This document shows, in pieces, positions 14,502 to 35,079 of a DNA stretch of 41,777 nucleotides. Below the pieces are notes generated by a model that saw nothing but the letters and a program-made list of their open reading frames with translations, searched no databases and was not told the origin of the DNA. Origin of the DNA: an uncultured Bdellovibrionales bacterium (GTDB lineage: Bacteria; Bdellovibrionota_C; UBA2361; SZUA-149; JADYYL01); contig CAYOAK010000003.1 in NCBI GenBank assembly GCA_964401925.1, forward strand, positions 1 to 41,777, written 5' to 3'. The translations under genes and the position numbers were made by a program. How positions within the stretch are numbered: position 1 is the first letter of the stretch; the number at the start of each line of letters is the position of its first letter.

Positions 14502-14521
14502 TTAAGACGCGACAGCGGGGG

Positions 14522-14550
14522 AAAGGCACCTTGAGGTGCCTTTCTTTTTT
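14522..14550 (+). terminator. rho-independent terminator
   Basis: A 9-bp stem AAAGGCACC / GGTGCCTTT with loop TTGA, followed by CTTTTTT, located 20 nt after the DUF3015 stop. Confidence 0.7.
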
Positions 14551-14625
14551 GGTGAGGGTCTCTTTTCGGTGAGGGTCGTTTTTCAATCCCCGTCGTTTTT
14601 TCATTTCCGGCTTTTGGATTTCTCC

Positions 14626-16539: not shown

Positions 16540-17387
16540 TGCCGATTTTTCGGATACTCAGAATTTTGGCTGGGGCATCGCTGATTCTCTCTCTCTCAAG
16601 CTGCAACAATCTCCTCTTCTTTCCTCAGCGTGAATACCTCCTCTCGCCAAGCGAGCTTCAACTCGAGTTTGAAGAAGTACGTTTCCCGATGGCAGACGGA
16701 GTGACGCTCGCCGCTTGGCATCTTCATCACAAGACGGAAGGTCCGAGGAAAGGGACGATTCTGTTTCTCCACGGTAACGCGGAGAACATCAGCACACACA
16801 TCTTCTCTGTCGACTGGCTGCCGGCCGCCGGATACGACGTATATTCACTCGATTATCGCGGATTCGGAGCTTCGGAGGGTGGGCTCAGCATGAACCGCTC
16901 TATCTCCGATATTCGAACGGTCATCGAATCGATCTCGTCTACGGCTCACGGGCCGCTGATCGTGTTCGGACAGAGCATTGGTGCCGCGCTCGCCATCCCG
17001 GCGATCGCACCGAAAGAGATTCAACACCAGCTCGCGGCGGTGATCCTTGAGAGCCCAGTAAGTTCTTATCGCCGGATCGCGAGGGAAAAGCTTGGGGAGC
17101 TCTGGCTGACCTGGCCACTCCAGTGGCCGCTAAGCTTCCTTCTCTCCGACCATTACGCGCCGGAGCGATGGGCGGAAAAGTTAATGCTGCCAACGCTAAT
17201 CGTGCATAGCCGTGATGATGAGATTGTTCCATTTCATCACGGCGAACGGGTCTACGGCCTGGCGAAGGGAAATGGCCGGACGGAATTCATTGCCTTCGAC
17301 GGCGAGCGCCACATCCACATCTTTCGGCGTATTGCAGCACGTGAGCAGCTCTTGGACTTCCTGCGCCGAACTACTTTGTTACCGTGA
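16539..17387 (+). CDS. alpha/beta hydrolase
   Basis: Start overlaps the upstream stop (TAATG). Lipoprotein-like N-terminus (LSLSSC), the LFLHGNAENI oxyanion region, nucleophile elbow GQSIGAA, and HSRDDEIVPFHHG carrying the acid/His region. Confidence 0.85.
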   Translation: MPIFRILRILAGASLILSLSSCNNLLFFPQREYLLSPSELQLEFEEVRFPMADGVTLAAWHLHHKTEGPRKGTILFLHGNAENISTHIFSVDWLPAAGYDVYSLDYRGFGASEGGLSMNRSISDIRTVIESISSTAHGPLIVFGQSIGAALAIPAIAPKEIQHQLAAVILESPVSSYRRIAREKLGELWLTWPLQWPLSFLLSDHYAPERWAEKLMLPTLIVHSRDDEIVPFHHGERVYGLAKGNGRTEFIAFDGERHIHIFRRIAAREQLLDFLRRTTLLP

Positions 17388-19239
17388 TCTTCACTCCCCG
17401 GGCGCTTCGGCTCTGATTTCCGGAGTCAGTGACAGTGGCGACGAGAGTGTACTTTCCCTTTTTCTTGAATTTCGCGTCCCCCCGATAAACACTACCCGAA
17501 CGGCGAAGCGTAAAGGAAAGCGATCCGGCTCGCATTCTCACGCTGCGCACTCCGCGGTCGTCTGAAACGGAAACCCGGCATTTCGTCGCCTTCTTCACTC
17601 TCACCTTGGTGGGCGAGCAGGTAAGACGGCCAATCACAGGGGGCCGATCAACGTCGACGTTGTCATCTCCGCCCGGCGGGTCGACTTCGGAGGTCGGAGA
17701 GGCATAAGCGCCTGGCGGTGTTGTTGCAGTTCGAGGCGCTTCGCTCCTATCGCGATCGACCGTGTTTACCAAATTTCCGGCTGGTGCGAGTGGAGGCGTG
17801 GCCCGATCTCCACCGGGAAAGGCCGGAATGGTTGCTGTGACAGCGGTGAGGAGGTTCCCCCCGGCAAGCGGACGGAAGTCTCCCCCGGCAGCATTGATGA
17901 ACTGCGGCGCGGTCGAAGTGATTGTATTGTCGGCGATGAGCTGAGTCTCGTTGCAGGTTGGATTTGACGGCTGACAACCACCCCCGTCGACTCCGAGGTT
18001 TGTGAACTCCGGCCCGCTCGAGATGTAGTTGCCTTGAATGCGCAAATTGTCGTCAACAACGACTGGTCCTGGAACATTGCTCCCGGCGAGAGCTGTCTGC
18101 GGCCCATAGAGCGCAAAGATCTGCCCGCCGGTTGAGAATTCCGGCGGATTGTAGATGACATTGTTGAAGATCGAGATGTTCCGATCGCCGATTGGTGCCG
18201 ACACGTCTTGACCGACCGAGGCGGTACCCCAACCGCCAAGGTTGATATTTGCTTGGCAAGCGGATGCGTTTCCGTCGCACGATCTCAGTCCAAAAACGAC
18301 TTCTATTGTATGCGAGCGGCTGCCCACCCGGTAAAGCGTATTGTGCGCGAGAAGGATATTATAGCCCCCGTTCACTCCGAGTCCGGCGCCCTCCGTGTCG
18401 TGAATCACGTTGTTGATGACCTTGATGTCGTAGGCCTCATAATGAATCCAGGGCGATGTCATGAATTCAAATCCGGTCCCCTGCCCTGCGGTAAAGCCGC
18501 CCGTGCCGCAATTGAAGATCCTGTTGCCCTCGACGCGCAGATAGGCAGAGCCCCCTTTCGCGTAGGCGCACCAGTCCTGCGCATTATGAATCAGGTTCCG
18601 CGCAATATGTCCGTATTGAACCGCGACGAAGTCGATGGCGTTGTCATCGGCGCCGTGGATGTTTGAATCCTCGATGTAGATATAGCTCGACTGGTTGATT
18701 TTGATCGTCTCGTGCGCCGCTCGGTTTCCTCCGCTCAGCTCACTATTTCGAATCAGAATATGGTCGCATCGCTCGCAATGAAATGCATCTCCTGCCGGTG
18801 ACGGATTGATGACGAGATCTTCAAGGTAAAGATAGCGCGTATCAAACACATTGAGGTCGCCGGCGAGAGTGACCGTTCCTCGTCCGCCGTTCGCACGAAA
18901 GATGATCGGCGCATTGAATGTGCCGTAGCGCGATTCGAGATAGTTCGGGATCGCGGACTCGGCCAGTGTTCCTGGAAGAATATTTATCCGAAATCCGGTG
19001 CCGAGATTCGAACCCTGGGGAATGGTGTTCCACGCCTGAGTCAGTGTTCGAAAAGCGTTCCCGCTGGAAAGTCCATCGCGTGAGTCACTCCCATTCACCG
19101 GATCTACGAAGTAATCGGTGACGAGCGGGTTTCCTTTATCGTAGCGAAGCTCCGCCATCTCTTGGGCATGCGCGGACGCCACGAGAATAGCGAATAGATG
19201 AAGGGCGAAGATGAGCGGAAAGGAGGTTTTTGCTTGCAC
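17371..19239 (-). CDS. secreted right-handed parallel beta-helix repeat protein with C-terminal Ig-like domain
   Basis: Repeated ..N.I.....D.AI.. turns (pectate-lyase-like, e.g. IHGADDNAIDF, IHNAQDWCAY, IHDTEGAGLGV). The GTG at 19239 gives the signal peptide KTSFPLIFALHLFAILVASAHA; the ORF is open up to 19341. Confidence 0.8.
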   Translation of the reverse strand: MQAKTSFPLIFALHLFAILVASAHAQEMAELRYDKGNPLVTDYFVDPVNGSDSRDGLSSGNAFRTLTQAWNTIPQGSNLGTGFRINILPGTLAESAIPNYLESRYGTFNAPIIFRANGGRGTVTLAGDLNVFDTRYLYLEDLVINPSPAGDAFHCERCDHILIRNSELSGGNRAAHETIKINQSSYIYIEDSNIHGADDNAIDFVAVQYGHIARNLIHNAQDWCAYAKGGSAYLRVEGNRIFNCGTGGFTAGQGTGFEFMTSPWIHYEAYDIKVINNVIHDTEGAGLGVNGGYNILLAHNTLYRVGSRSHTIEVVFGLRSCDGNASACQANINLGGWGTASVGQDVSAPIGDRNISIFNNVIYNPPEFSTGGQIFALYGPQTALAGSNVPGPVVVDDNLRIQGNYISSGPEFTNLGVDGGGCQPSNPTCNETQLIADNTITSTAPQFINAAGGDFRPLAGGNLLTAVTATIPAFPGGDRATPPLAPAGNLVNTVDRDRSEAPRTATTPPGAYASPTSEVDPPGGDDNVDVDRPPVIGRLTCSPTKVRVKKATKCRVSVSDDRGVRSVRMRAGSLSFTLRRSGSVYRGDAKFKKKGKYTLVATVTDSGNQSRSARGVKITVTK

Positions 19240-19507
19240 GAGTGTTACTATCGGCCCGGCACCGACCGGCCTTAAGTGCCCGATACGTAGTAACTTTGTG
19301 TGTTTTCCCTCAGGTGCCGCCGGGCCCGGACTCCAGCACAACTCGATTCGTACTGATTTGCATCGGATGCCCCCACCGGACCCGCGGACCGGGTTACGAA
19401 AGACGCAGCGGTTCTGACCAGTTGCCGAATGGTGGGAATACGACCCAGGTCATACCTCCCCGCCCCGCAGCCGGTTCACACTGCGGCAATCATCGGAAGG
19501 AGACGCA

Positions 19508-19915
19508 ATGAAAACACAGTTAGCATTTGCATGCGTGGCCATTGGGTTAATTGGGGCCGGCACCGCTTCGGCGGACAAATTCGAATTTGACGGCGTATAC
19601 GCAACGCCGAACCTTGTTCGTGTCCAAACTCATGCAGGTCAGATGGATACCGATGGAGTCCTCAGTCAGGGGGAGATTCCAAACCCTCGCATCGACTACG
19701 AGCGCGAAAAGGAAGCAGCTGCGCGTCGCGGAGATCCCCGCTTCAATAATCCGTTTAACGCAGCCGTTGCGGAGGAAGATCGGGAATACAATGATCGTTA
19801 CGATCGCTACAGCGATCAGGAAGATCGCCGTTCACGCATACGATACGATCGAGCCCGGCGCGAGGACCGGTCTGATGAAACGCCTGACGAGCGTCGCGGC
19901 TGGTGGGGCTGGTAG
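19508..19915 (+). CDS. hypothetical small secreted protein with highly charged D/E/R-rich tail
   Basis: Signal peptide MKTQLAFACVAIGLIGAGTASA with GGAG upstream. The C-terminal half is D/E/R-rich and ends RRGWWGW. Confidence 0.6.
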   Translation: MKTQLAFACVAIGLIGAGTASADKFEFDGVYATPNLVRVQTHAGQMDTDGVLSQGEIPNPRIDYEREKEAAARRGDPRFNNPFNAAVAEEDREYNDRYDRYSDQEDRRSRIRYDRARREDRSDETPDERRGWWGW

Positions 19916-19918
19916 ACT

Positions 19919-21988
19919 TCAGCCACCACGCAACGTTTCAGTGCACTTTCCACCGGCCGCGTTTGTGCACGTCAGCACAATTTCCGGAACAGCTGCGCTT
20001 GTGCATTGCACCGTGCACGTGTGACCACCCTTTCCGAGAATGACAATCTCCGTCGCCGTTCGGGTGTCGGCATCCCCTTCACTGAATGGGATCGGAGAGT
20101 TCGCAGGGAATCCGGCGAAAGTCGGAGTGCCCGTTGCGGAGCTGAGGGTAACATTCGGGACACCGCAGCTCCCCCCAGCATTCGTATAGATTCCATCGGG
20201 ACAGATAAATCCACCGACCGCCGGTGGTGTATCGCCGGGGTCAACGCCGCCACCGAAGGACGCGTCCTCTGCTTGAGAAATGAGACCCACGATCGCCTGC
20301 ACCGATCCCGCGTTTGTCAGCGCCCCGACGTGACCGGCTTTGAGAGAAACTATCCCCCCGCCAAATCCGGACCCTTGAATGAGTTGCGGATCGCTGTCGA
20401 CCACCGGATTGCTCTGGTTTTCAGGGTTCAGCACCTGGTCGCTCGGTGAAACAGCAAAGTCATCCCCCTTTTCGAGCAGCTCAACCTTCACCATATGGAT
20501 GTTCGAGCCAAGTGACCCCGGCGCTGTGATGTAAGTGGAGCCCGAGGCGACGCGCGCGTAAAAGACGCCGGGTGCGTATGTCGTTTCAGAGAGCCAGAAG
20601 AGCGGATTGAAATTAGCGAAGAAGAATCCGCCATAAGGGGTGCCGACGCTCAGAAAAGTGACCTCAATCCCTGAATTTGCGAGAGTTTTATTCCGCCCGA
20701 GTACCATGGCCCGGCGCGCAATCAAGCCGCCCATGCTGTGTGCGACGACAGTTACCTGAGTGATGCCAAACTCATCTCGCAGTTTTATCACAGCGTCGGC
20801 AAACTTATCGGCAAGCTCCTCAAGATCATCCGTATCGCTCGCGAAGCCCTCGGTGACTCCGTCGAATGCCGGCCCAACGAGCGCGCTCGCCTTTTTGTCG
20901 TAGACAAAGCGAAACACGTTGTGGCTCTTTGACTCCTCCGCTTCGAGCTTATCGAAATGGCTCGACTCACCGTTCACTCCATGAATCATCACGATCACCG
21001 GCTTGGAGGGATCGATCGCTCCCCCCGGCAAAGTCGGCGCTTGGAGCCCGGATGCTGCAAAGTCTACCGGGTCGAAGTTTACGTTCGAAGGAGCCTCTCC
21101 AGCGGTATAGGAACTTGGTCCTGCACTGCTTTCTGATCCGCTTATCAGCTTCAATGCATTCACTGCAGCCGGGGCATCGGCACATCCATTTGGAGGAAGC
21201 CCGGCTTCGTCGAGTGCGTTTCTGAGCTGAACATCGAAACCAAACGGCCAGAATCGATCCTGGATCGTCGCGCTGGCCGATAGCCGTGGATCGGAGTCCA
21301 CAGCCGCCTGATTCTGCGACGCAAAAAAGATGCCGTCAGCATCCGCGCCGCCGCTGAGCAACGATGTGCGCGCGATATCGATCACAATTTTGCGATGCGT
21401 AACATTGCCCGGAAGCGCCCCCGGATTCTGAATGTAGTCACTTTCCGAGAGGAGCTCCGCAGGATATCCCGCCGGGGCATCCGCACTTGGAACTCCCCCG
21501 AAGGGTGAAAAAAATGTCACGAGATCGATCTCAATATCCGGCAGCGGCTGTGTCGCGAGCGCTCGTCGCGCGATCACGCCTCCGGTATTATGACCGAGAA
21601 CAACGACTTCCCGAATGCCTGCCGCCGCTAGCGACTGGATCGCGTTCGTTAGAGACGCCTCAAGCACCCCCGGTGCAATCAGCTTTCCGCCGGCATCGGA
21701 AGCTTTCACTCGATAGATTGAATCGGCGAAGCTCTCGCGGCAGCCGAGTTCCGCACCGGCCTGCGCCGCGATTGAATCTTCTGCGGTCAATCCACCGATG
21801 AAGAGGGCGGGCCGCGCCGTGGTTGCATTATCGACACTCGCGATTAGATCAATCCCCTGATCGGCCAGCTGCTGACTTATCTGTGTGAACGGAATTTGCG
21901 GAAGATGCGAGTTTCTTTCGCCGTCGCTCCCGTCACACGCGGAAAAGAGGAGGAGCGCGAGAATGCTGAGATAGCCGAGTGTTTTCAT
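19919..21988 (-). CDS. lipoprotein with two tandem lipase/esterase-like alpha/beta-hydrolase domains
   Basis: Lipobox LLLFSAC. Two paralogous elbows are present: VVVLGHNTGGVIARRAL (Ser replaced by Asn) and VTVVAHSMGGLIARRAM (intact). The C-terminal domain is Cys-rich. Confidence 0.8.
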   Translation of the reverse strand: MKTLGYLSILALLLFSACDGSDGERNSHLPQIPFTQISQQLADQGIDLIASVDNATTARPALFIGGLTAEDSIAAQAGAELGCRESFADSIYRVKASDAGGKLIAPGVLEASLTNAIQSLAAAGIREVVVLGHNTGGVIARRALATQPLPDIEIDLVTFFSPFGGVPSADAPAGYPAELLSESDYIQNPGALPGNVTHRKIVIDIARTSLLSGGADADGIFFASQNQAAVDSDPRLSASATIQDRFWPFGFDVQLRNALDEAGLPPNGCADAPAAVNALKLISGSESSAGPSSYTAGEAPSNVNFDPVDFAASGLQAPTLPGGAIDPSKPVIVMIHGVNGESSHFDKLEAEESKSHNVFRFVYDKKASALVGPAFDGVTEGFASDTDDLEELADKFADAVIKLRDEFGITQVTVVAHSMGGLIARRAMVLGRNKTLANSGIEVTFLSVGTPYGGFFFANFNPLFWLSETTYAPGVFYARVASGSTYITAPGSLGSNIHMVKVELLEKGDDFAVSPSDQVLNPENQSNPVVDSDPQLIQGSGFGGGIVSLKAGHVGALTNAGSVQAIVGLISQAEDASFGGGVDPGDTPPAVGGFICPDGIYTNAGGSCGVPNVTLSSATGTPTFAGFPANSPIPFSEGDADTRTATEIVILGKGGHTCTVQCTSAAVPEIVLTCTNAAGGKCTETLRGG

Positions 21989-22070
21989 GGCTTCCTCTCC
22001 GAAGAGCGAGGGAACTGCTGCGGGGAACTGCTCGGATTTGTCGCGTGAGTCTTACAATCCGTGAAGTCTG

Positions 22071-22970
22071 TCAAATTTCTTCGACAGCGGCCCTCAGAGC
22101 GGCTTTCCTCCGGCTCTGCAAGAACGGGAGGGAGATCGCGAGGACGATCAACACGGCACCGACCCACTGGATTGAGGTGAGCCGCTCGCCAGCGAAGGTG
22201 ATTCCGATGAGTGCGCCTACCACAGGCTCGATCAAGAACATCAAGCCAATCTGCGCGGCCGTCAAAAAGAACTGCATCCGCATCATCATCCAAAAGCGGA
22301 AACCGCTGAGAATCAGCCCCGAATAAAGGATCGCCGTCCAGGTGGTCTGGGAGAGATCTGACATCTGCCTGGGAAACTCCTCCAGACACACAGCGAACGG
22401 CAATGCGACGAGCGCGCAGATAAGCTGTGACACACCGGTCAAGGCAAGCGCGGAGTGACGCGGGACGATCGATTGATTGAGCGAATAATAGAGCGCGAAG
22501 AAGAGAGCCGAGCAGAGAACGAGAGAATCATCCTGTGCAATCGAGAGATCAGATCGAATAGTTAACGCCGCTAAACCCGCGACACCGATAAGCAATGGGA
22601 TCACCGTTCCCTTCCCCACTTTCCGGCGGAACAGAACCCAATCGACGATCGGAATCAGAATGGCATCAGAATTTGCGAGAAACGCGGCGACCGAGGAGGA
22701 TGACGTCTTCAATCCAAACAACAAGAACAGCATCGCGAGGGTGAATGCCACTGCCGGAATCGCAGCATCGCGCCAGGTACTGACCGAAATCCTTGTTCGG
22801 GTGAGATAGCAAGTGACAATGAGAATGAGCGCGGAAAGGAGAAAACGCGTTGCAGTCAGCGTGAACGGGCCGACCTCGCGCATCGCGATTTTTCCGACGA
22901 GATACGAAGTCCCGCCGAGGGTGCAGCTAAAGAGCACCCCGAGTCGTGCCGCATTCGGGGTGAGGTTCAT
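22071..22970 (-). CDS. DMT-superfamily (EamA-like) transporter
   Basis: About ten hydrophobic helices in a 5+5 arrangement, typical EamA length and composition. Confidence 0.85.
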   Translation of the reverse strand: MNLTPNAARLGVLFSCTLGGTSYLVGKIAMREVGPFTLTATRFLLSALILIVTCYLTRTRISVSTWRDAAIPAVAFTLAMLFLLFGLKTSSSSVAAFLANSDAILIPIVDWVLFRRKVGKGTVIPLLIGVAGLAALTIRSDLSIAQDDSLVLCSALFFALYYSLNQSIVPRHSALALTGVSQLICALVALPFAVCLEEFPRQMSDLSQTTWTAILYSGLILSGFRFWMMMRMQFFLTAAQIGLMFLIEPVVGALIGITFAGERLTSIQWVGAVLIVLAISLPFLQSRRKAALRAAVEEI

Positions 22971-22989
22971 CGTCCGAAGATTATCGAAC

Positions 22990-24273
22990 TTAGAACAGGC
23001 CCGTTGGATCTACGAGCGTCACGAAAAGTTGCCCGCTTGCGCCGGCGAGGGAGGTAGTTGCAGCTCCGGTCGCAAGAACATCACCGCCGAGACCACCATT
23101 CCCGCCAAATCCGCCGCCGCCGCCGCCGCCGATGCGAGTCGCTGCGCTAACAGTGCCCGGTCCACCCGCGCCTGCAGCGGCCCCCGGCAAAACCGAAATG
23201 GTTCCCCCGTTACTCGGTGTTACCGTTGGGCTGAGCAGATGCACGATCCCTCCAGCTCCACCGCCGCCGGACCCGGAATTTGCACCTGCAACTCCGCCGT
23301 CTCCCCCCGCAACACTGATCGATCCCCCCTGAGTGATACTTCCGGGAGAAGCCAAAATAACTATCCCGCCGGCGCCGCCGCCAGCTCCGCTCGGTGCGAC
23401 CGAGCCACCCGCAGAAATTGCACCTGCCGCGCCGATCGAGATTCCCGATTGCGCCAAGATTGTAACCGCGCCGCCGCCGCCACCGCCGACCGAACCCGGA
23501 GCGCCGCCTGCTCCGGCTCCTCCACCGAATGGACCGGGCTTTAAGAGGGTCCGCGCTTGGTTTGGCGTAAGGCCGACTCCACCAGTTCCTCCAAAACGGG
23601 TCGCGGCATTCGATCCGAGCTCGCCATGCTCAGCATGTCCCGCGGAGTTTCCCGTTGCTGCCGGCCTCAGTGCGGGGATCATGCCCGCAGAGAAGGTTGA
23701 TGCCGCTGTTTCCAGGAGTCCGCCAGTCGCGGACGACGGAACGGACACTATCCCGTCGATTGTAACGGTACCAGTCGCGCGAAGGATGACGCCGCTCGGG
23801 ATCGTCAACACCTGCCCTGCGGCGACGGTGATATCGGTGAACTGCAAATTCCCATCCGTCGCATAATCAGTGAGGAGTGCTCCTCCCACCGTGACGTTCA
23901 GCGGACCTGCGGATCCGTCGCCGTAAATGCGGAGCGAACCATCAGCTCCAGCGGCGCCAGCCGCACCCGGCGGCCCGGCTGGTCCGGCCGCACCCGCAGC
24001 ACCAGCCGTCCCGTTAGTGCCGGCTAGACCGGTTGCGCCAGTGGGACCCTGTGCTCCTGCGGCTCCTTGAGGCCCCGCCGGTCCGACGAGAAGGGCGCGT
24101 CTGCCCAGTTTCGTCTCACCTCGCACGCATTTTGCCCGCAGCGTCAGTGCACCGTTGGAATTCTTCGAGCAGATGACTTTCGGAATGGGCGCGGCCAACG
24201 CCGCTTGACCGGTAAGCAATACCAAAGAAAATATCGCTGCCGGGATCATTCGAAGAATGTGTAGATCGATCAT
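22990..24273 (-). CDS. secreted collagen-like triple-helix repeat protein with glycine-rich beta-helix-like C-terminal region
   Basis: ATG at 24273 gives the signal peptide MIDLHILRMIPAAIFSLVLLTGQAALA. It has 16 uninterrupted G-X-Y triplets, followed by long Gly-rich repeats (..GGIVILASPGSITQGGSISVAGGDGG..). Confidence 0.8.
   Translation of the reverse strand: MIDLHILRMIPAAIFSLVLLTGQAALAAPIPKVICSKNSNGALTLRAKCVRGETKLGRRALLVGPAGPQGAAGAQGPTGATGLAGTNGTAGAAGAAGPAGPPGAAGAAGADGSLRIYGDGSAGPLNVTVGGALLTDYATDGNLQFTDITVAAGQVLTIPSGVILRATGTVTIDGIVSVPSSATGGLLETAASTFSAGMIPALRPAATGNSAGHAEHGELGSNAATRFGGTGGVGLTPNQARTLLKPGPFGGGAGAGGAPGSVGGGGGGAVTILAQSGISIGAAGAISAGGSVAPSGAGGGAGGIVILASPGSITQGGSISVAGGDGGVAGANSGSGGGGAGGIVHLLSPTVTPSNGGTISVLPGAAAGAGGPGTVSAATRIGGGGGGGFGGNGGLGGDVLATGAATTSLAGASGQLFVTLVDPTGLF
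23938..24084 (-). repeat. collagen-like G-X-Y repeat tract (coding)
   Basis: GPAGPQGAAGAQGPTGATGLAGTNGTAGAAGAAGPAGPPGAAGAAGADG = 16 consecutive Gly-X-Y triplets. Confidence 0.85.
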
Positions 24274-24467
24274 CTTTGTGCCCTTTCGCTCAAAAAAATT
24301 CACGACGATCTCTATAGCGGTAGCCCCGCCCACCCGCCATTCGAAAACTCGCCGCCTCTCGTCGATGGGAGGCCGGAGAGCAGCCGGGGGACATCCCGAA
24401 CCAGGGGAAACCGAAAACCTGCCGTTCTCCTCCAAAAACCCTCAGCAAATTCAGCAATGTACAGCTC

Positions 24468-24493
24468 TATAGATTGCCAGAAAATGCCGATAA
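24468..24493 (+). promoter_or_regulatory. sigma-28 (FliA)-type promoter candidate
   Basis: TATAGATT-N10-GCCGATAA, compared with the enterobacterial consensus TAAAGTTT-N11-GCCGATAA. The -10 element matches 8/8 and the -35 element 6/8. It ends 31 nt upstream of the flagellin ATG at 24525. Confidence 0.55.
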
Positions 24494-24524
24494 CCAATTG
24501 CTGTGTGCAGCACCATGGATGGTG

Positions 24525-26378
24525 ATGTTGAATTTGAACACAAATCGGTCTGCTCTCGGAGCGCTGCGCCAATTGGATGGGCATACCAATGCCTTGCGCG
24601 CGAGCTTTGAGCGGCTCTCGACGGGACTTCGGATCACTCGCGCAAGCGATGACGCCGCAGGTCTATCGATCGGCACAGCTTTGCGTGCGGACTCTCGGGT
24701 GTTCAATCAAGGGATTCGGAACGTCAACGACGGGATAGCACTTCTATCGATCGCAGAAGGCGCAACACAGGAACTCTCCAAGGTCGTCACACGAATCGAA
24801 GAGCTTGCGTTTCAAGCGGCAAACGGGACGCTCACTTTTACGCAACGCCGAGCGCTCGACGCGGAAGCACAAGCACTTCGTGCTGAGCATGATCGAATCA
24901 AGGCAACGACAAATTTCAACGGCCTTGCCTTAATTGACGGCTCGCTGTCGCAGCTCAGTCTTCAAGCGGGATACGGCGTGAACGGCACGCTCACTCTCGC
25001 CGTTGGACAGAATACTCTTCACGGTGAGGGGGATGGGACGTTCACGAACAACACGGCCGTGACGTTACCGGGGGCCGGATCACACGAAGATATCGAGCTC
25101 GTCGACGTGAATGGAGATTCGATCCTTGATCTTGTTTACAACGATCGCGGGGCGAACACGATTTACACGCATGTCGGGAACGGAGACGGCACCTTTCTCG
25201 CTCGGCAAGGCGTGGCAGTTGGATCGAGCCCGTGGGAGATGGAGTTCGGAGACTTCAATGAGGATGGGCTCGTTGATTTCGTTACCTCCACAGCAGCGGG
25301 AGTGAATTGGCGGTTCGGAACCGCCGGAGGAACCTTTGTGTCCGGGGCGGGTCTTGCCGGTCCGTCACAACGCTCGGTAACGGTAGGTGATTTCAACAAC
25401 GACGGAAACCTCGATTTCCTCTCCTCAGAGTTTTCAAATACGGATTCGTTTCTGCATCTCGGAAACGGAGATGGGACTTTCAAAGCGGTGCAGACCATCG
25501 CCGTGCCGGTACTCGCGGAATCTGCAGCGGCCGGGGATCTGAACGGAGACGGAATCGACGACGCCGTTTTCGGAGGAGGAGATCTCGTCGTCGCACTTTC
25601 CAACGGAAACGGCACATTTAAGGCAGGTGTCTCTTACAGTGTCTCCGGCATCATACGGAACGTAAAAATGGCGGACATGAACGGCGATGATATTCTGGAT
25701 GCCGTCGCTTCCACCGACGGGGGCCGGGTCGACGTCTTCTTGGGAAACGGAAACGGCACGTTCAAAGCCTCTGCCGTTCTGAGCGGGCAAGGAGGTGGCG
25801 GTTATGCTGGTTTAGCTCTTGCTGACGTTAACAGCGACGGAGCATTGGACGTCATTTCGACTGCGACGACTACCCCCGTGTACCAAGTATTCGTGAATAA
25901 TGGGAACGGTTCGTTCCTAGCTCGAGTGACCTATGGTGCTGCAGCAAACACGAGAGCTGTCGCAGCTGGAGATATCAACGGTGACGGCATCAACGACCTC
26001 GTCAGCGCAGCGTACGCCGGAAGCTCGCTAGCGATTCTCTTCGGGAACGGCGGCACGACCGGCGACATGCAGGACTTCGACCTGCGCACACGGAGCCAAG
26101 CGCTCGCAGCGATCGATCTGCTGAAAACTGCGCGGAATGCCATTAGCGCGGAGCTTGGCGCGATCGGAGCATTCCGGAGCAGGCTCGACACAGCGGCAAA
26201 TGCGCTCAGTATTATTCGGGAGAACAGCGAGCGCGCCGCCAGCCAAATTCTAGATGTGGACGTGGCGCAAGAAGCGGCGGTGCTTGCCGCGGTGAACATC
26301 CGGCAGCAAGCCGCCGCCGGAGTTCTCTCGCAAACACAGCTCCAACCGCAGCTGGCGTTAAGCCTGCTGCGATTCTAA
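24525..26378 (+). CDS. fliC: flagellin with FG-GAP beta-propeller in place of the variable domain
   Basis: N-terminus MLNLNTNRSAL..FERLSTGLRITRASDDAAGLSIG..IRNVNDGIALLSIAEGA..AFQAANGT..FNGLALIDG. C-terminus ..LGAIGAFRSRLD..ILDVDVAQEAAVLAAVNIRQQAAAGVLSQTQLQPQLALSLLRF. Both match the flagellin N and C domains. ATG 24519 or 24525 is the likely start; the ORF is open from 24474 but that stretch contains the promoter. Confidence 0.85.
   Translation: MLNLNTNRSALGALRQLDGHTNALRASFERLSTGLRITRASDDAAGLSIGTALRADSRVFNQGIRNVNDGIALLSIAEGATQELSKVVTRIEELAFQAANGTLTFTQRRALDAEAQALRAEHDRIKATTNFNGLALIDGSLSQLSLQAGYGVNGTLTLAVGQNTLHGEGDGTFTNNTAVTLPGAGSHEDIELVDVNGDSILDLVYNDRGANTIYTHVGNGDGTFLARQGVAVGSSPWEMEFGDFNEDGLVDFVTSTAAGVNWRFGTAGGTFVSGAGLAGPSQRSVTVGDFNNDGNLDFLSSEFSNTDSFLHLGNGDGTFKAVQTIAVPVLAESAAAGDLNGDGIDDAVFGGGDLVVALSNGNGTFKAGVSYSVSGIIRNVKMADMNGDDILDAVASTDGGRVDVFLGNGNGTFKASAVLSGQGGGGYAGLALADVNSDGALDVISTATTTPVYQVFVNNGNGSFLARVTYGAAANTRAVAAGDINGDGINDLVSAAYAGSSLAILFGNGGTTGDMQDFDLRTRSQALAAIDLLKTARNAISAELGAIGAFRSRLDTAANALSIIRENSERAASQILDVDVAQEAAVLAAVNIRQQAAAGVLSQTQLQPQLALSLLRF
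25020..26060 (+). repeat. seven FG-GAP/VCBS-type repeats (protein-level) inserted between the flagellin N and C domains
   Basis: Seven D-x-N-x-D-G-x-x-D loops: DVNGDSILD, DFNEDGLVD, DFNNDGNLD, DLNGDGIDD, DMNGDDILD, DVNSDGALD, DINGDGIND. Each is followed by G-N-G-(D/N)-G-(T/S)-F or a degenerate form of it, and one extra GEGDGTF strand precedes the first repeat. Confidence 0.8.
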
Positions 26379-26393
26379 CGGCGCAAAACCGAA

Positions 26394-26693
26394 TTATCGC
26401 GCCTTGTAGATAACCGCACTGATGCTATCGAAAAGGACGAGCGCATCATAGAAATCTTTTCCGGAGAGCCCGCTGATCAATACAGCGTTATCTCCGATCT
26501 CGGCGACGGTTCCGGTGATCTCCTCGCCCGTTCCGAGACGTAAAGTGACGGGCTTCTTCTTGAGAGCTTCAAGAGTGCTTCGAACAGGTTCATCACCTGA
26601 CGCACCCAGCTTGGCTGCTTCTTGAGCGAAGGCGGGCGCCGTTGCAAGTAAGGTTCCGGTGAAAAGAAGAGTTGAAACGATCTTTCGCAGCAT
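26394..26693 (-). CDS. hypothetical small secreted protein
   Basis: Signal peptide MLRKIVSTLLFTGTLLATAPAFA followed by a ~70-aa beta-rich domain. No family recognised. Confidence 0.6.
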   Translation of the reverse strand: MLRKIVSTLLFTGTLLATAPAFAQEAAKLGASGDEPVRSTLEALKKKPVTLRLGTGEEITGTVAEIGDNAVLISGLSGKDFYDALVLFDSISAVIYKAR

Positions 26694-26825
26694 ATGATTC
26701 TCTTTTAATGAATTGGGCGCGGCTTAGCCGGCCCGGTAGTCTGGGACGAAAGCTATTACGCTTTTGTGTTCATTGACTAGCCGAAGTTCTCGGTATGCCG
26801 CCCGAGCCGGACGGGAGCAGAGCTG

Positions 26826-27584
26826 TCAGCGGGCGAGGACTGAATCAATCTTCTGCCGGATTGTCTCGAGATCCCGTGGGATCTGGTCGAGGACGCTCTG
26901 TTTCTTGGACGTAGATCGATGAAATGGATCGTGAACGGCAGTATCGACTCGGGTGAGCGTAAAACCTGCGGGTGCTGACTCGTCCGCCATCTTCCCCTGG
27001 AGCGCGCTTATCTCATTGCCGACATGGGGATACGTCAGCCGTCCGAAGCGGCCCTGATTCGGTGTGATTCCATCCATGATGCGGATGATCGGCCGTAATA
27101 CCGGGTTCAACGGAAGCATCGGTGGGCTTACGGCCACGAGAGAATGCTTTCCCTCGGTGAGTTTGCCCTGCTCCGCAAGCCGATAGCCGATGTATGAACC
27201 CTGGGATGCACCCACAATCATCACCTCGGCATCTTTGGGCAGGTCAAGTGATCGGAGTTGTGCACCAATTTGTGCTGCTTGATCCTTAATGGGCGCGCGA
27301 TCATCATAGCCGACGCTTATGTGCCGAATGGAGTACCCGGCGTCCTGTCTCGACTTCAGGATCCCCGTGACAGACGAAGCGATGAGCTCATGCGTCACAT
27401 CCTTTTCGTTCTGTTCGCTATTTCGCCGCCCTGGAATCGTAATCAGAACTATCTTCTTCTGGTCCTGCCGAGCCGCGCCGGGAATATCATACTCCCGTGA
27501 GCTGAGCCGGGGGGCGCGTTCGGTGCCGAGCGATGGCACCGATTCGCCTTGTGAATGTTTGTCGTCTGCGACTCTGCCGCTCAT
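26826..27584 (-). CDS. hypothetical protein, possible alpha/beta-hydrolase fold
   Basis: VMIVGASQGSYIGY resembles a G-x-S-x-G nucleophile elbow. The rest of the protein is unrecognised. Confidence 0.55.
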   Translation of the reverse strand: MSGRVADDKHSQGESVPSLGTERAPRLSSREYDIPGAARQDQKKIVLITIPGRRNSEQNEKDVTHELIASSVTGILKSRQDAGYSIRHISVGYDDRAPIKDQAAQIGAQLRSLDLPKDAEVMIVGASQGSYIGYRLAEQGKLTEGKHSLVAVSPPMLPLNPVLRPIIRIMDGITPNQGRFGRLTYPHVGNEISALQGKMADESAPAGFTLTRVDTAVHDPFHRSTSKKQSVLDQIPRDLETIRQKIDSVLAR

Positions 27585-27713
27585 CGAAAGTCGATCCCCC
27601 GTCCGGATCTGTTATGGCCTCGCCGTACCTCAAGAGAGCCAAGTCTTGTCGTCAATGAGATGTCAGCAGGGGCCGTACCGAATCAGGCGGAATAACTTCA
27701 ATAAATTTGGCAA

Positions 27714-28799
27714 TTAAGAGGGGCCTTTCACCGGAACGCCTCGCACCCCTTCAATCCGCTTGAGAACCACCGGATAGGCGAAATACTGGCCGAGCTCCGG
27801 GCTCTCGCGAAAGGAATAGACACCCAGCACGCCCGATTTCTCTCGTGTCGACTGCAGAAGTCCTAACAGATGCCCGGCCGACAAGATCTGCTCAGCGCGA
27901 AAGATCTCTCCGACGAGGATCGTCATATCGTAAGCGCTGCCTGCGAAAGTCAGCTGCGCTTCATTGCCATAAGCAGTGCGGTATCTCGACCGGAATGGAA
28001 CATCGGCGTCATTGTCGGGGTAAAGGCAGCCCTCCGCCAGTCCTCTCCCTTCGGTGAGAGCTGCCGCGGTCTCGCAGAGGTCAGTTCCAAAATACTGTGC
28101 ATCAAGACCAAGCTCGCGCGCTTGACGGAAGAAGGCGATCAATTGCTCTGGCCAGAGAAAAACGCCGATGGCCCGGCGCTTCAAAACCTTCAGCTTCGCA
28201 ATCACACTGCGAAAATCAACCTCCCCCGGAGAGACACGCGCGATCTCCTGAAGCTTGATCTTGCTCCCTCCGGCTTTTCGAACGCCGTCGATCATCGCAC
28301 TGAAGAATGTGGACTCGGTCTGAATGATTGGAAGCTCGTTCTCTCCTGATTTCGCGAGGTAGTCCGCAAGCGCTGCTGTATATTCGCCGGTATGATTCAT
28401 CGAGCGAATGAGAAATTTCTTTCCCACGACCGGCGCGGCCTCAAAACTAAAATTAATGAATGTCAGCTTATCGCGCTCGACGAGCGGTCCGATCGCTTGC
28501 GCTAGATTGGTACCGAAGCCAAGGAGCAAATTCAGCTGGCCCGCCGCTTTGAGCTTCCGGTAAGCTGTGAGTGATTGCTTCGAATCGAACTGATCGTCCT
28601 CGTAAGCGAAAGTCAGATTCTCAAACAGCTCCGGATGCTCCTTCCGAGCGAGCTCAATTCCGTTTTTCACCGCCGTTCCGATCGTTGCCATTGGACCGGT
28701 CAGCGGCGTGATCACGCCGATCCGTAGCTGCCGCTCCTGCGCATCAGAATGAACAGGGCAAAGAATGAGCAGTGAGATGAGAACGAGAAAGCAGCGCAC
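27714..28799 (-). CDS. ABC transporter periplasmic substrate-binding protein (LivJ / branched-chain amino-acid-binding family)
   Basis: Signal peptide, then LRIGVITPLTGPMATIGTAVKNGIELA, typical of the type-I periplasmic-binding fold. No permease or ATPase genes are adjacent. Confidence 0.8.
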   Translation of the reverse strand: MRCFLVLISLLILCPVHSDAQERQLRIGVITPLTGPMATIGTAVKNGIELARKEHPELFENLTFAYEDDQFDSKQSLTAYRKLKAAGQLNLLLGFGTNLAQAIGPLVERDKLTFINFSFEAAPVVGKKFLIRSMNHTGEYTAALADYLAKSGENELPIIQTESTFFSAMIDGVRKAGGSKIKLQEIARVSPGEVDFRSVIAKLKVLKRRAIGVFLWPEQLIAFFRQARELGLDAQYFGTDLCETAAALTEGRGLAEGCLYPDNDADVPFRSRYRTAYGNEAQLTFAGSAYDMTILVGEIFRAEQILSAGHLLGLLQSTREKSGVLGVYSFRESPELGQYFAYPVVLKRIEGVRGVPVKGPS

Positions 28800-28865
28800 T
28801 TGATCCTCCGAACTGGAATCAAAGATGCGCGTCTACGCGCTGATCAGGGAGCACGTCAAGCGGCG

Positions 28866-31817
28866 CTACTGCAGGAACGCTTCTCCGCGTTTGACTCGAA
28901 CGGCGCTCGAGACCTCGGGCGGTGAAACGGTTGTGCCGTCGATCTTCCCTATCCAGATTTTTCTGTCTGTTGTGAGAACCGCAAACCAGGTTTGCCCATT
29001 GGCGTAGGCGCCCGCAACAGCTTGCTGAGCCCGAGGAACCGCAAGCGAGTTGGAAGAATTTCTCCATGCCGATTGCGAACGGTCATAAACAAGCAGCTTG
29101 ATCGCCTTCGTGCTTCGACTAAAGAAGGCGAGATTCACCGGCGCGCTGCCTGAAGCTGGAAGCGCGAGGTAGCTCCCTGAGGAGATGCTCCGCGGCAGAC
29201 TCGCTGTCTCAAGCACTTTTGCCCCATCCCGACTGAGAAGCTGAGCTTTGCGGTTCAACAGCACCAGGAACAAAGTATCGCCATTCGCGGTCATCACGCA
29301 GCTCGCTGACGTGACGCCTTTAGGAAGGCTGACTGTCGTCCCGGAGGACGTCCCCGGTGTGAGCAACTGAATAGATCGCCGAGTACTGTTCATCGCCGCG
29401 GGGACAAACTGCCCTCCAATCGCGCAACCAAGCAGCGGCGTATCGCGGCCGGTCCCAAACGCACCCAGAGAGACTTTATGCCCTGTAAGCGGATCGAGCG
29501 CTCCCCAACTCAACTTGTCTGTGCTTCGTGCTCCGCGTTTCACAGAGATGACCTTCGCGCGTCCAGTCCCGTCGATCTCACCAACGCCAACCTTCATCAC
29601 CCTGGAGATGCTTCCTTCGTGGGTTGGACCGCTACCGACCTCTTGTGGCTCCGAAAGGAATGCCCGGAAGGCGGTGTTATTCAGGAGGACAAGATCGCTC
29701 GAACCATCCCCATTGAGATCGCGTAGAACATGCGGAGCGGCATCGCAGAGATCTCCTACGCCATCGCCGTCAGCGTCCGCCTGATCAGCGTTCGACACAG
29801 CGGGGCAGTTGTCGCTCGTATCGGGGGCACCATCTCCGTCAACGTCGGATGGCACCACGACAGCGGGCATAAACACAGCAGTAAATGTCGTGTTGGTAAG
29901 CGGTGTGTCGATGGTGTGAACAAGCTGCCCACTGTCGGACCAGAGTGCGAAATTATAGGTAATCCCGTTTAGTGTCTGCGGCGCGAGTGTGCCGATTGCA
30001 CGCGTTGTCCCGACAACTCCTTCGACCGATTTCGGCGCGGTCTGTGGCTGGCCGTCCAGTGTAACCGTAAGACCAGCCGGTGAAGTCTGTAGAGTGAAAG
30101 TGGACTTCCGCGGCAACACATCCCGAGTCGACTGATGGATTGCCCCTTGTGAGTCAGTCACTGTGAGCTGAATTCGATACCAGACGTTCGCCGAGGTCTC
30201 TCCGAGCTTCGGAATTTGGAACGAGCCGGTTCTGGTCTGTGTCAGCGGGCCGAGGAACGGATGCGAATGAGTGTCGTGATGGAATGCGACGCTCCACGAG
30301 AAAGCACTCGCAGGAAGAGTCCCATCCTGCGAGTCCGTGGCAGTGCCGGAGAAACTGATTGTATCGCCTGCACTGTAAAGGGCTCCGTTTCCAGGACTAA
30401 CGATTGTTCCTACCGGCGCAGTATTCTGTCCCGTGACCGTAATTTGCCTCGATGCTGAATTCGTACCGCCACGCCCGTCTGACACTGTCAGGGTCGAAGT
30501 AAATACGCCCGGCGTGGAGTAGGTGTGACTCGTCGTAACACCGGATGCCGTCGGCGACCCATCGCCAAAGTTCCACGAATAGGTGAGCGTGTCTCCGTCA
30601 CTATCGCTGCTTTGTCCCCCGCTGAAATTTACATTCAGAGGCACTGTGCCCGAAGTCGCCGAAGGTGAGTTCACAGCAACCGGTGCCTGATTTGGGGCCG
30701 TGCCCGTGTAAGTGATTCTGCGAACTGCGCCGCCGCTGAACGCTAAGTAATACAGCGTTCCGTCAGGCCCAGTTTCCAGAGAAACGGGGGAATCTACCCC
30801 CGTAGCGAACGCCGACATCTGATTCGATTGATTCAATCCGCGAATAAAATTCCCGATGTAATCCGAAAAGAAGTAGACGCCGGTATACGATGCGGGGAAC
30901 TGCGATCCTCGATAGAAGACCCCTCCCGTGATCGCGAAGCCTTCCGGATGGGCGTAGGCGTAGATCGGATTCGTCATTCCAGTTGCAGAGCAGACACCTT
31001 CGCAAGTCGGCCAGCCGTAGTTCGCGCCCCTCGCAAGCTGATTCACTTCCTCCCAAGTATTCTGCCCGACATCGTTGACGTAAATCCTTGAGCTCCCCGG
31101 ATCGACAGCAAAGGTATACGGATTCCGCAGCCCAAGCGCCCAGATCTCACCGCGCGCTCCGGACGTTCCGACGAAGGGATTGTCAGACGGAATCGTTCCG
31201 TTCGAGTTAATCCGCAGGATCTTTCCCAGGAGGTTCGTGAGTGTTTGTGCATTCGCCGATACGGCATTGTCGCCGACTGCAATATAGAGCTTTCCGTCTT
31301 GCCCAAAGTGGATCGCTCCGCCGTTGTGATTACCCGCACTGACAAAGATGTCGTCGAGGATCACCGTTTCGCTTCCTGCCTCCACGAGATCGGGATTTGA
31401 GACGCTTGCACGAAAGCTGCTCACCCGATTCTTCAGCGGGGAATTGTTCGTATAGTAAAGATAGAGAGTCCGATTGGTCGCGAAATTCGGATCGAAGGCG
31501 ATGCCGAGCAACCCGCGCTCGGATGAAGTATTCACAGGAAGGTTGACAAATGGTGTCGCGAGGAGCTGGCCATTTTTAATGATTCGCAGGCGGCCCGCCT
31601 TCTCGGCAACGAACAGTCTGCCGTCCGGAGAGAAGCGCATCGTCGTCGGCTGTTGCAAGCCCGAGGCAACTACGGATTCCTGGAAATCAGGGGGAAGCGC
31701 CGCTGCAACGGTGTGGAGAATGGTGAGGATGAGGAAAGCAAGAATGCTTCCGGATAGAACGTAGAGAGCTGTCTTCAGTTGCGGGGCGATGACCCGAACA
31801 ATGCGATCATCTCGCAT
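28866..31817 (-). CDS. membrane-anchored PQQ-dependent sugar (glucose/sorbosone) dehydrogenase-like beta-propeller with PKD, thrombospondin-type-3-like and C-terminal beta-rich domains
   Basis: N-terminal TM helix. GSDH motifs (RGLLGIAFDPNF, HNGGAIHFGQDGKLYIAVGD, EIWALGLRNPYTF, ANYGWP). PKD domain (YSWNFGDGS...HTY..PG.F...LTVSD). Calcium-binding D-x-D-x-DG repeats (DVDGDGAPDTSDNCP..DADGDGVGDLCD), then an FG-GAP-like LNGDGSSDLVLL. Confidence 0.85.
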   Translation of the reverse strand: MRDDRIVRVIAPQLKTALYVLSGSILAFLILTILHTVAAALPPDFQESVVASGLQQPTTMRFSPDGRLFVAEKAGRLRIIKNGQLLATPFVNLPVNTSSERGLLGIAFDPNFATNRTLYLYYTNNSPLKNRVSSFRASVSNPDLVEAGSETVILDDIFVSAGNHNGGAIHFGQDGKLYIAVGDNAVSANAQTLTNLLGKILRINSNGTIPSDNPFVGTSGARGEIWALGLRNPYTFAVDPGSSRIYVNDVGQNTWEEVNQLARGANYGWPTCEGVCSATGMTNPIYAYAHPEGFAITGGVFYRGSQFPASYTGVYFFSDYIGNFIRGLNQSNQMSAFATGVDSPVSLETGPDGTLYYLAFSGGAVRRITYTGTAPNQAPVAVNSPSATSGTVPLNVNFSGGQSSDSDGDTLTYSWNFGDGSPTASGVTTSHTYSTPGVFTSTLTVSDGRGGTNSASRQITVTGQNTAPVGTIVSPGNGALYSAGDTISFSGTATDSQDGTLPASAFSWSVAFHHDTHSHPFLGPLTQTRTGSFQIPKLGETSANVWYRIQLTVTDSQGAIHQSTRDVLPRKSTFTLQTSPAGLTVTLDGQPQTAPKSVEGVVGTTRAIGTLAPQTLNGITYNFALWSDSGQLVHTIDTPLTNTTFTAVFMPAVVVPSDVDGDGAPDTSDNCPAVSNADQADADGDGVGDLCDAAPHVLRDLNGDGSSDLVLLNNTAFRAFLSEPQEVGSGPTHEGSISRVMKVGVGEIDGTGRAKVISVKRGARSTDKLSWGALDPLTGHKVSLGAFGTGRDTPLLGCAIGGQFVPAAMNSTRRSIQLLTPGTSSGTTVSLPKGVTSASCVMTANGDTLFLVLLNRKAQLLSRDGAKVLETASLPRSISSGSYLALPASGSAPVNLAFFSRSTKAIKLLVYDRSQSAWRNSSNSLAVPRAQQAVAGAYANGQTWFAVLTTDRKIWIGKIDGTTVSPPEVSSAVRVKRGEAFLQ

Positions 31818-31976: not shown

Positions 31977-32813
31977 CTATTCCGGTGCACTCAGCTCAGC
32001 ATTTGTTTGCCTTGTTCCGCCGACATAAGTGCACGAAGCTTCGAGCATTGTGGGATAGAACTGTAGCGAACGGAGGATGCGCGCGATCCAGGACGAGGTC
32101 ATCCGGTAGCCGTAATATGTCACCGAGCATTTATTGACACCTGGAGCTATCGGCGCGACGACGTGGTCCGGCACATAGATCGGATTGTCATACTTCCAAA
32201 GCTTCCATACGTCGTGCGAGAGCCGCGGCCGGACGCGGAAATATGCAGCGTCCGCCTCTGCACACATTCCGGCCGCCCTGCAGCCGCGCACTGAGTGGAT
32301 GTTCTCTTCGTGATCGATCTCTTCGGAGTTGTTCAAGTAGAAGGTCTCCGTCCGCATCGAAGTCGCCATGAGTATCCCGTCACTCACCGGCTCAATCGTC
32401 ACAAATCGAATTGCGTCTCCAAGTCCGGTCGGGCTCATCCCTGCAAGAACGAGAAAAGTGAAGCCCATGACGAATCCCGCTCTCCGGCGTGAGAGGACTC
32501 GTTCACCGGTTTTTCGATCGGTGCGAAAGGCGAAGCGCTGCCAGAATCTTCGATACTGGCGGAGTACCCACCGAATAGGCGGGCCAATGACATTCCAGAT
32601 CGGCTGAAGGAAGTGGAGATAGAATCCCAGCGTTCCCTCTTTAACGTTAACGACTGTACGTCGTACGTAACGAACATCGTCCGCTAATCCTTGCAGCGTT
32701 CCCGGTTCGGTAACCGGAGGGGGCTTTGGTTTTCCGGAGCGAGCGTGAAGCATCTTCGCCTCCGCCAGCAGCCGATCGGCCTGTTCGCTCGAGCTCTCTT
32801 CTTCATCGCTCAT
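31977..32813 (-). CDS. hypothetical membrane protein (last gene of the ClpB-like operon; possibly DUF1523-related)
   Basis: Starts 10 nt after the ClpB-like stop. One clear TM helix (FVMGFTFLVLAGMS) and a Cys-containing extracytoplasmic domain with ..VTYYGYR.. that weakly recalls DUF1523. The family call is low confidence. Confidence 0.65.
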   Translation of the reverse strand: MSDEEESSSEQADRLLAEAKMLHARSGKPKPPPVTEPGTLQGLADDVRYVRRTVVNVKEGTLGFYLHFLQPIWNVIGPPIRWVLRQYRRFWQRFAFRTDRKTGERVLSRRRAGFVMGFTFLVLAGMSPTGLGDAIRFVTIEPVSDGILMATSMRTETFYLNNSEEIDHEENIHSVRGCRAAGMCAEADAAYFRVRPRLSHDVWKLWKYDNPIYVPDHVVAPIAPGVNKCSVTYYGYRMTSSWIARILRSLQFYPTMLEASCTYVGGTRQTNAELSAPE

Positions 32814-32823
32814 GCGAGTCCCT

Positions 32824-35052: not shown

Positions 35053-35079
35053 AGAGAACCTACTGAGCGGCGTGAAGCA

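Follow-up and report, generated by a model that had tools for sequence, protein, structure and literature searches.

Flagellins with a predicted seven-bladed FG-GAP beta-propeller as outer domain form a large family that includes a protein of an uncultured Bdellovibrionales bacterium

Introduction

The outer domains of flagellins are the regions through which flagella gain adhesion, enzymatic activity and evasion of immune systems or phages. A survey based on AlphaFold models of UniProt entries termed 'flagellins' sorted these domains into 682 clusters, and a single sentence of that paper is devoted to 'WD40-repeats in cluster #55', with cellular homologues noted (Fields et al., 2024; PMC11532411). 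The same paper (PMC11532411) also refers to proteolytic flagellins, the flagellinolysins (Eckhard et al., 2017). Here we describe a flagellin gene located at 24525..26378 on the forward strand of a 41,777-nucleotide (41.8 kb) stretch of DNA from an uncultured Bdellovibrionales bacterium (contig CAYOAK010000003.1 of assembly GCA_964401925.1, positions 1 to 41,777), referred to in the following as the window. The encoded protein carries FG-GAP repeats of the integrin alpha type between two flagellin ends, an arrangement which had been noticed in a reading of the DNA sequence without database searches (the original prediction), and which is compared here with protein families, predicted and solved structures, related loci and the literature.

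Results

The ends of the protein are those of a flagellin while its middle consists of FG-GAP repeats. In Pfam, Flagellin_N (PF00669) matched aa 5-140 (E 1e-31, 110 bits, cut-off 26.6) and Flagellin_C (PF00700) matched aa 531-615 (E 7e-13, 49 bits, cut-off 23), and between them FG-GAP_3 (PF13517) matched in eight overlapping stretches (E 2.4e-48) along with FG-GAP (PF01839; E 3e-13), so that the three kinds of profile expected from the original prediction were all detected. At the N-terminus, the helices of D0 and D1 (aa 1-140, 24525..24944, +) correspond to Flagellin_N and to helices 8-32, 40-99 and 105-128 of the structural model described below, and are followed by the D1 beta-hairpin and a linker toward the outer domain (aa 141-166, 24945..25022, +; model strands 144-147 and 155-158), a segment with 34% identity in the family. 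The C-terminal D1 and D0 helices, which end in ...LALSLLRF (aa 523-617, 26091..26375, +), correspond to Flagellin_C and to model helices 523-578, 582-604 and 606-616. The conserved flagellin helices that had been claimed for both ends are therefore borne out by profiles and predicted helices alike. Between the ends lies the outer domain, a predicted seven-bladed FG-GAP beta-propeller of 349 residues (aa 167-515, 25023..26069, +) supported by the FG-GAP_3 matches, the model and structural similarity, which is acidic with an isoelectric point of about 4.05.

The longest open reading frame (ORF) at this position runs from a TTG codon at 24474 to 26378 (+) as a single uninterrupted frame. The promoter described below sits inside this frame and TTG 24474 is for that reason not the true start, which leaves ATG 24519 or ATG 24525. 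Public annotations are split between these two codons: the product from ATG 24525 (617 aa plus stop) is identical to an NCBI protein (P0001), and the JGI gene call from ATG 24519 gives 619 aa (P0121). The 617-aa protein has no cysteine, and cysteine makes up 0.06% of the residues in the family as a whole. A signal peptide is absent and the N-terminus is disordered.

Exactly seven tandem units with D-x-N-x-D-G-x-x-D loops had been counted in the original prediction, spanning about 25020-26060 and preceded by one extra GEGDGTF strand. The motif count agrees, as there are exactly seven D-x-N-x-D-[GSD]-x-x-D loops in the propeller, and its measured borders (25023-26069) lie close to those given before. 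The calcium-type loops, all on the + strand and identified by the motif and the family alignment, are DVNGDSILD (loop 1, aa 194-202, 25104..25130), DFNEDGLVD (loop 2, aa 243-251, 25251..25277), DFNNDGNLD (loop 3, aa 289-297, 25389..25415), DLNGDGIDD (loop 4, aa 338-346, 25536..25562), DMNGDDILD (loop 5, aa 384-392, 25674..25700), DVNSDGALD (loop 6, aa 434-442, 25824..25850) and DINGDGIND (loop 7, aa 483-491, 25971..25997). Of the 21 loop aspartates, 18 do not vary among 56 relatives and the other three hardly do; in loop 1 D194 and D202 belong to the former and D198 to the latter. The Pfam E-values together with this conservation exclude a chance occurrence of the repeats. To judge from the motif the loops would bind Ca2+.

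Seven GxGxG[TS]F strands are present (aa 167-173, 218-224, 265-271, 313-319, 359-365, 407-413 and 458-464). The first is the extra GEGDGTF strand (aa 167-173, 25023..25043, +), which is indeed found ahead of loop 1 and coincides with model strand 166-173, and the seventh repeat, reading GNGGTTGD, has no GTF strand. Because a GTF strand precedes loop 1, repeat 7 is without one and a strand is modeled at 166-173, we infer a velcro closure in which the leading strand completes the last blade. This would place the two ends of the propeller next to each other, as is required of an inserted domain.

Three other identities were considered. No peptidase family was found in Pfam and no HExxH in the translation, and the protein was rejected as a flagellinolysin on these grounds. 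Giant flagellins are longer than 1000 aa, and with 617 aa the protein does not belong to them. A FlgL identity was rejected as well, since the NCBIfam model of FlgL (TIGR02550) scored 61 bits versus 164 bits for flagellin models. The full-length NCBIfam models all remained below their own cut-offs for the 617-aa protein, because its middle domain is foreign to them. No PD40 (PF07676) match was found in Pfam.

An AlphaFold2 model built with the alignment of 56 family sequences had a mean predicted local distance difference test score (pLDDT) of 87.2 and a predicted template modeling score (pTM) of 0.75, and consisted of a helical D0/D1 core and an all-beta domain with about 28-30 strands from residue 166 to 512, where pLDDT was mostly above 90. 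When the model was compared with the PDB by Foldseek, the core matched the flagellar filaments 9n59 (top matches, E 1.7e-15), 7sn4 and 9au6, and the predicted D0/D1 fold resembles that of these solved filament subunits. The middle matched the lectin PVL of the fungus Psathyrella velutina (4up4, E 3e-12) and ITFG2 in KICSTOR (target template modeling (TM) score 0.65-0.68, root mean square deviation (rmsd) about 4.2 A over about 350 columns; for 9v9n_B a score of 0.68 and an rmsd of 4.2 A over 351 columns), and also integrin alpha-V (9ind_A), BBS7 and TcdB. About 350 columns align to the seven-bladed structures of ITFG2, BBS7 and LGI1-EPTP (rmsd about 4.2 A, target TM score 0.65-0.77). The middle domain is thus predicted to be a closed seven-bladed toroid, and the two programs agree on what had been proposed, namely a propeller placed on a D0/D1 helical core.

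Pairwise identity across the 56 relatives is 47% in ND0, 57% in ND1 and 57% in CD0, and the signature residues of D0/D1 are retained in the family alignment. Both D0 and D1 are thus strongly constrained across these relatives. A profile of the family matched solved flagellins with E-values down to 2e-77 (9n8g, FlaA), in the D0/D1 regions only, and among the PDB matches of this profile and of Foldseek there was no solved flagellin with a propeller.

The window is a metagenome-type contig, which is the circumstance that would favor an artefact in which assembly or gene calling had fused a flagellin to an FG-GAP gene. Against this, the gene is one unbroken reading frame, composition along the window shows no step across it, and a JGI contig (L087, sample 3300015615) is 100% identical to the window from 14519 to 31676, i.e., over 17,158 nt that include the gene and both junctions. 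Furthermore, more than 110 independent protein clusters from JGI, ENA, Logan and NCBI, with lengths of 570-680 aa and 35-45% identity, have the same Flagellin_N/FG-GAP/Flagellin_C architecture, and the D0/D1 regions of the family form a clade of their own (see below). A chimeric assembly is very unlikely and an artefact of either kind is effectively refuted. The flagellin in the window is real and belongs to a large family that is as yet uncharacterised.

Members of this family carry generic names in the databases, such as 'flagellin-like hook-associated protein FlgL' or 'VCBS repeat-containing protein', and many such flagellins are hidden in metagenomes under names of this kind. The metagenome-assembled genomes (MAGs) of the relatives are labeled Bdellovibrionota, Bdellovibrionales, Oligoflexia, Deltaproteobacteria or just 'bacterium', and have a G+C content of 39-57%. 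Contigs were also searched with the universal flagellin motif [AP][SA]DD[AP]AGL[AS][IV]; ordinary flagellins dominated the result, with at least five family loci among the matches listed, and these ordinary flagellins served as the outgroup and as the control for promoters. When all ORFs of the fetched loci were scored with the family profile, FG-GAP flagellins, each with seven loops, obtained 622-791 bits and ordinary flagellins at most 346 bits.

Upstream of the gene a sigma-28 (FliA)-type promoter, TATAGATT-N10-GCCGATAA, is found at 24468..24493 (+), which matches TAAAGTTT-N11-GCCGATAA at 14 of 16 positions. The -10 element (24486-24493) is a perfect GCCGATAA, the -35 element matches at six of eight positions, and the promoter ends 31 nt before ATG 24525. 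No other site on either strand of the window reaches 13 of 16 matches, and at least 14 of 16 matches occur against a random background at 0.19% per 200 nt. A match at 13 of 16 positions or better was present at four of 13 family genes in a first set, compared with 0.56% of random 200-nt windows (binomial p about 7e-7) and with 13 of 115 genes for ordinary flagellins, drawn from many phyla; five further family regions added one match at 13/16 and two at 12/16. The motif evidence suggests that the family is part of the flagellar late regulon. A scan for sigma-70 promoters and terminators around the gene gave nothing that exceeded shuffled sequences.

The best-scoring 'ordinary' flagellin, from an uncultured Bdellovibrionales bacterium (L009:380-2404, +), proved to have PD40 (TolB/WD40-like) propeller repeats rather than FG-GAP repeats, and no D-x-N-x-D-G-x-x-D motif. 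A second large family of flagellins with about 680-700 aa and a PD40 propeller (P0245-P0363) was found, one member of which is named 'flagellin [Oligoflexia bacterium]'; the genes come from MAGs labeled Bdellovibrionales or Oligoflexia, often in several copies per contig. In a neighbor-joining tree of 230 D0/D1 columns, in which N and C ends were aligned with separate profiles and which carries no bootstrap, one bipartition splits 69 FG-GAP and 25 PD40 flagellins from all 116 others, and 24 of the 25 PD40 flagellins are nested among the FG-GAP ones. This provisionally suggests one ancestral propeller flagellin in which the type of propeller was swapped later.

Across ten annotated loci of the family the gene lies scattered among housekeeping genes, and two or three paralogs often form an array. 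Arrays of divergent paralogs are found at L085:6474-15650, L088:10001-13979, L089:3924-11890 and L001:10001-21905, and three FG-GAP flagellins stand in tandem at L004:1-7530. At least four FG-GAP flagellins, and in addition two ordinary ones of about 290 aa (L031:3820-6311), are encoded in one MAG (Co_bin.265, GCA_030431715.1).

The neighbors of the gene in the window are an EamA transporter, a collagen-like secreted protein, a small secreted protein, a periplasmic binding protein, a protein with a glucose/sorbosone dehydrogenase propeller, PKD and thrombospondin type 3 repeats, a ClpB-like ATPase and kinases. The product of the divergent neighbor (22990-24435, -) is a secreted protein rich in Gly and Ala. 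It has a signal peptide and matches nothing in Pfam, and in it about 16 collagen-like G-x-y triplets (GPAGPQGAAGAQGPTGATG...) are followed by long glycine-rich repeats; this gene accounts for the local peak in G+C content (65.7% in 23001-24000). On the other side a convergent gene (26394-26693, -) encodes a protein of 99 aa that carries a signal peptide and matches no family, and the stops of the two genes are only 15 nt apart, so that there is no space for a separate terminator. The 983-aa glucose/sorbosone dehydrogenase protein (28866-31817, -), with its beta-propeller, PKD and calcium-binding thrombospondin type 3 repeats, is a second secreted protein with a calcium-type propeller near the flagellin. 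In the region 31977-36777 (-) the ClpB-like AAA+ ATPase (32824-35052), which matches strongly to the second AAA module only, is flanked by ORFs of 278 and 565 aa that both lack a family match; identities of 60-75% are found only to MAG proteins, with about 45% to the 'AAA family ATPase' of Gamma- and Alphaproteobacteria. Two further genes lie in the region 17371-21988 (-), one for a right-handed beta-helix protein (17371-19341) and the other for an alpha/beta hydrolase of 689 aa (19919-21988, -) with weak similarity to Tle3-type lipases of type VI secretion systems.

Discussion

The flagellin in the window is probably a filament subunit. From its architecture, predicted fold, promoter motif, family and clade we infer the following course of export, polymerisation, calcium binding, exposure and function. 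The sigma-28 promoter would drive a late-class flagellin paralog, which, like other flagellins, may leave the cell in unfolded form by way of the flagellar type III channel; the protein lacks a signal peptide and cysteine, and its N-terminus is disordered. Outside the cell the subunit would polymerise through its intact D0/D1 helices, and the 349-residue seven-bladed FG-GAP propeller, in place of the usual D2/D3 domains, would fold with one Ca2+ in each D-x-N-x-D-G-x-x-D hairpin loop, seven in all. The leading GEGDGTF strand would supply the outer strand that blade 7 lacks, the ends of the propeller would meet, and the domain could plug into the D1 hairpin by two adjacent linkers, such that one acidic disc per subunit covers the filament. 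By analogy with flagellins of comparable or larger size for which filaments have been solved (9au6 with 793 aa, 7sn4 with 585 aa), size is no obstacle to incorporation. In the flagellar lattice successive subunits of a protofilament lie about 52 A apart, and at a radius of about 85 A the distance from one protofilament to the next is about 48 A; it is geometrically plausible that a disc of about 48 A per subunit fits into it.

Several observations weigh against a propeller that is displayed on a motility filament and that binds a ligand. About two thirds of the family genes have no sigma-28 motif that is recognisable by the E. coli-type consensus. None of the roughly 30 large ORFs in the window is a flagellar gene, and at nine of the ten annotated family loci no flagellar structural gene is found within 10 kb of the family gene. 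At the exception (L084) an FG-GAP flagellin (L084:10001-11875) adjoins a secretion cluster (L084:12187-18111, -) that comprises an SctV-like export gate, an SctJ-like lipoprotein, a TPR protein and a FliA/WhiG-type sigma factor, together with several small ORFs of unknown kind. The SctV-like protein scores 515 bits versus 500 bits as FlhA and is thus slightly nearer to the non-flagellar type III secretion system (T3SS), and the cluster may represent a type III system of non-flagellar or hybrid kind. The flagella of cultured Bdellovibrio are sheathed, and if the hosts of the family resemble them, a sheath would hide the propeller. Finally, no conserved ligand-binding site is visible in the propeller when the 56 relatives are compared.

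The first of these points touch on whether the protein is a filament subunit at all. It could be a type III secreted substrate which is released, forms a separate adhesive fibre or makes up a short specialised segment, perhaps by way of a non-flagellar or hybrid T3SS, rather than the major subunit. The dispersal of the genes, never in flagellar operons, would fit this, as would the SctV-like, SctJ-like and FliA/WhiG-like genes that abut the gene at L084, and the ordinary short flagellins in the same MAG could form the real filament. However, dispersed flagellin genes are also known from multi-flagellin bacteria such as Bdellovibrio, a T3SS neighborhood exists at only one of ten loci, and D0/D1 are of full length and conserved as in ordinary flagellins, which would be unnecessary for mere secretion. 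We therefore regard secretion without assembly into the filament as unlikely, and a subunit of the filament as the better description of the protein.

If the propeller is exposed on a filament, its purpose can be approached from the pattern of conservation, as identity across the 56 relatives is 70% at motif positions of the propeller and 22% at all others. In the original prediction the propellers were proposed to turn the flagellum into an adhesin or binding scaffold; the low identity outside the motifs and the lack of a conserved site argue against one ligand shared by the family. A conserved core and framework with a surface that is free to vary would fit paralog-specific binding, but equally well a spacer or decoy without ligand. 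In the latter case the propeller might be a rigid, calcium-stiffened spacer that thickens and stabilises the filament, e.g., in viscous or particle-rich habitats, or a variable decoy against flagellotropic phages and grazers, and purely mechanical thickening is the main alternative to a binding layer. The confinement of conservation to the framework is in agreement with this, and so are the multiple paralogs per genome and the replacement of FG-GAP by the unrelated PD40 propeller in a clade mate, which suggests selection on shape and not on binding chemistry; outer domains are also reported to modulate motility in viscous media (PMC8931119; PMC10256154). On the other hand, the nearest solved propellers (the PVL lectin, integrin alpha and ITFG2) are binding modules, and a hypervariable surface on a constant scaffold suits diversified binding specificities as well. 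A propeller without ligand is accordingly a possible but doubtful explanation. The propeller would most likely act as an exchangeable surface or binding layer, either lectin-like or adhesive and specific to each paralog, a reading which is favored because the framework is conserved, the surface is hypervariable, and two to four or more paralogs exist beside ordinary short flagellins.

It is tempting to speculate further that the clade, in uncultured and probably predatory Bdellovibrionota, uses a constant D0/D1 as a display rack for interchangeable FG-GAP and PD40 propellers, with several hypervariable paralogs per genome that would offer switchable, calcium-dependent lectin or adhesin specificities, e.g., for prey or particles. 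Taken as a whole we consider this scenario rather improbable, and more radical still is the version in which some of the proteins are built into an adhesive fibre by the non-flagellar SctV/SctJ-type system rather than into a motility filament. The two unrelated propellers on the same core within one clade nevertheless amount to a natural experiment on the purpose of outer domains. A filament is stated to have about 20,000 subunits in the flagellin survey (PMC11532411), and an integrin-type calcium-binding propeller in as many copies would, if true, create an extreme multivalent surface for binding or structural purposes. The clade also offers a ready-made, cysteine-free scaffold, presumably exportable by a T3SS, for the engineering of filament display.

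Comparison with known systems

The seven FG-GAP blades and D-x-[DN]-x-D-G-x-x-D hairpins are shared with the integrin alpha head, ITFG2 and the PVL lectin (Foldseek E 3e-12 to 3e-10). Integrins have three or four calcium loops and PVL has two calcium sites, whereas the propeller in the window carries the calcium motif in all seven blades. It further differs from the three proteins in that it is inserted into a self-assembling helical polymer and in that no conserved ligand pocket was identified in it. Flagellinolysins and giant flagellins set the precedent that the variable region can accommodate a foreign domain, complete and functional, which is displayed thousands of times, but in flagellinolysins the insertion is an enzyme, while here it is a binding or scaffold fold without HExxH.

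Closest of all are the PD40 flagellins (L009 and P0245-P0363), which have in common with the FG-GAP type the propeller outer domain, the D0/D1 clade, the host labels and the several paralogs per contig, and which differ by PD40/TolB-like repeats, the lack of D-x-N-x-D-G-x-x-D loops and a length of about 680-700 aa. Cluster #55 of the survey also shares with the flagellin in the window a beta-propeller as outer domain (PMC11532411), and because a family of PD40 flagellins was found here, this cluster is probably of the PD40 type. The novelty claimed in the original prediction therefore stands in one respect and falls in another: no paper was found in a literature search for the combination of flagellin and FG-GAP/VCBS, but the family is large and already present in databases, and a propeller outer domain ('WD40-repeats') has already been mentioned. 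While propeller outer domains as such are known, the FG-GAP version with integrin-type calcium loops and the structure of the clade appear to be undescribed.

With canonical flagellins, such as Salmonella FliC, H7 of E. coli O157:H7 (7sn4) and the flagellin of Geovibrio thiophilus (9au6), the flagellin in the window shares the D0/D1 hairpin core with an insertion at the tip of D1, the sigma-28-type promoter, the absence of cysteine and a size within the range of solved filaments. The difference lies in what is inserted: the outer domains of canonical flagellins are Ig-like, beta-folium or helical D2/D3 domains, whereas here their place is taken by a single predicted FG-GAP propeller with seven calcium-type loops.

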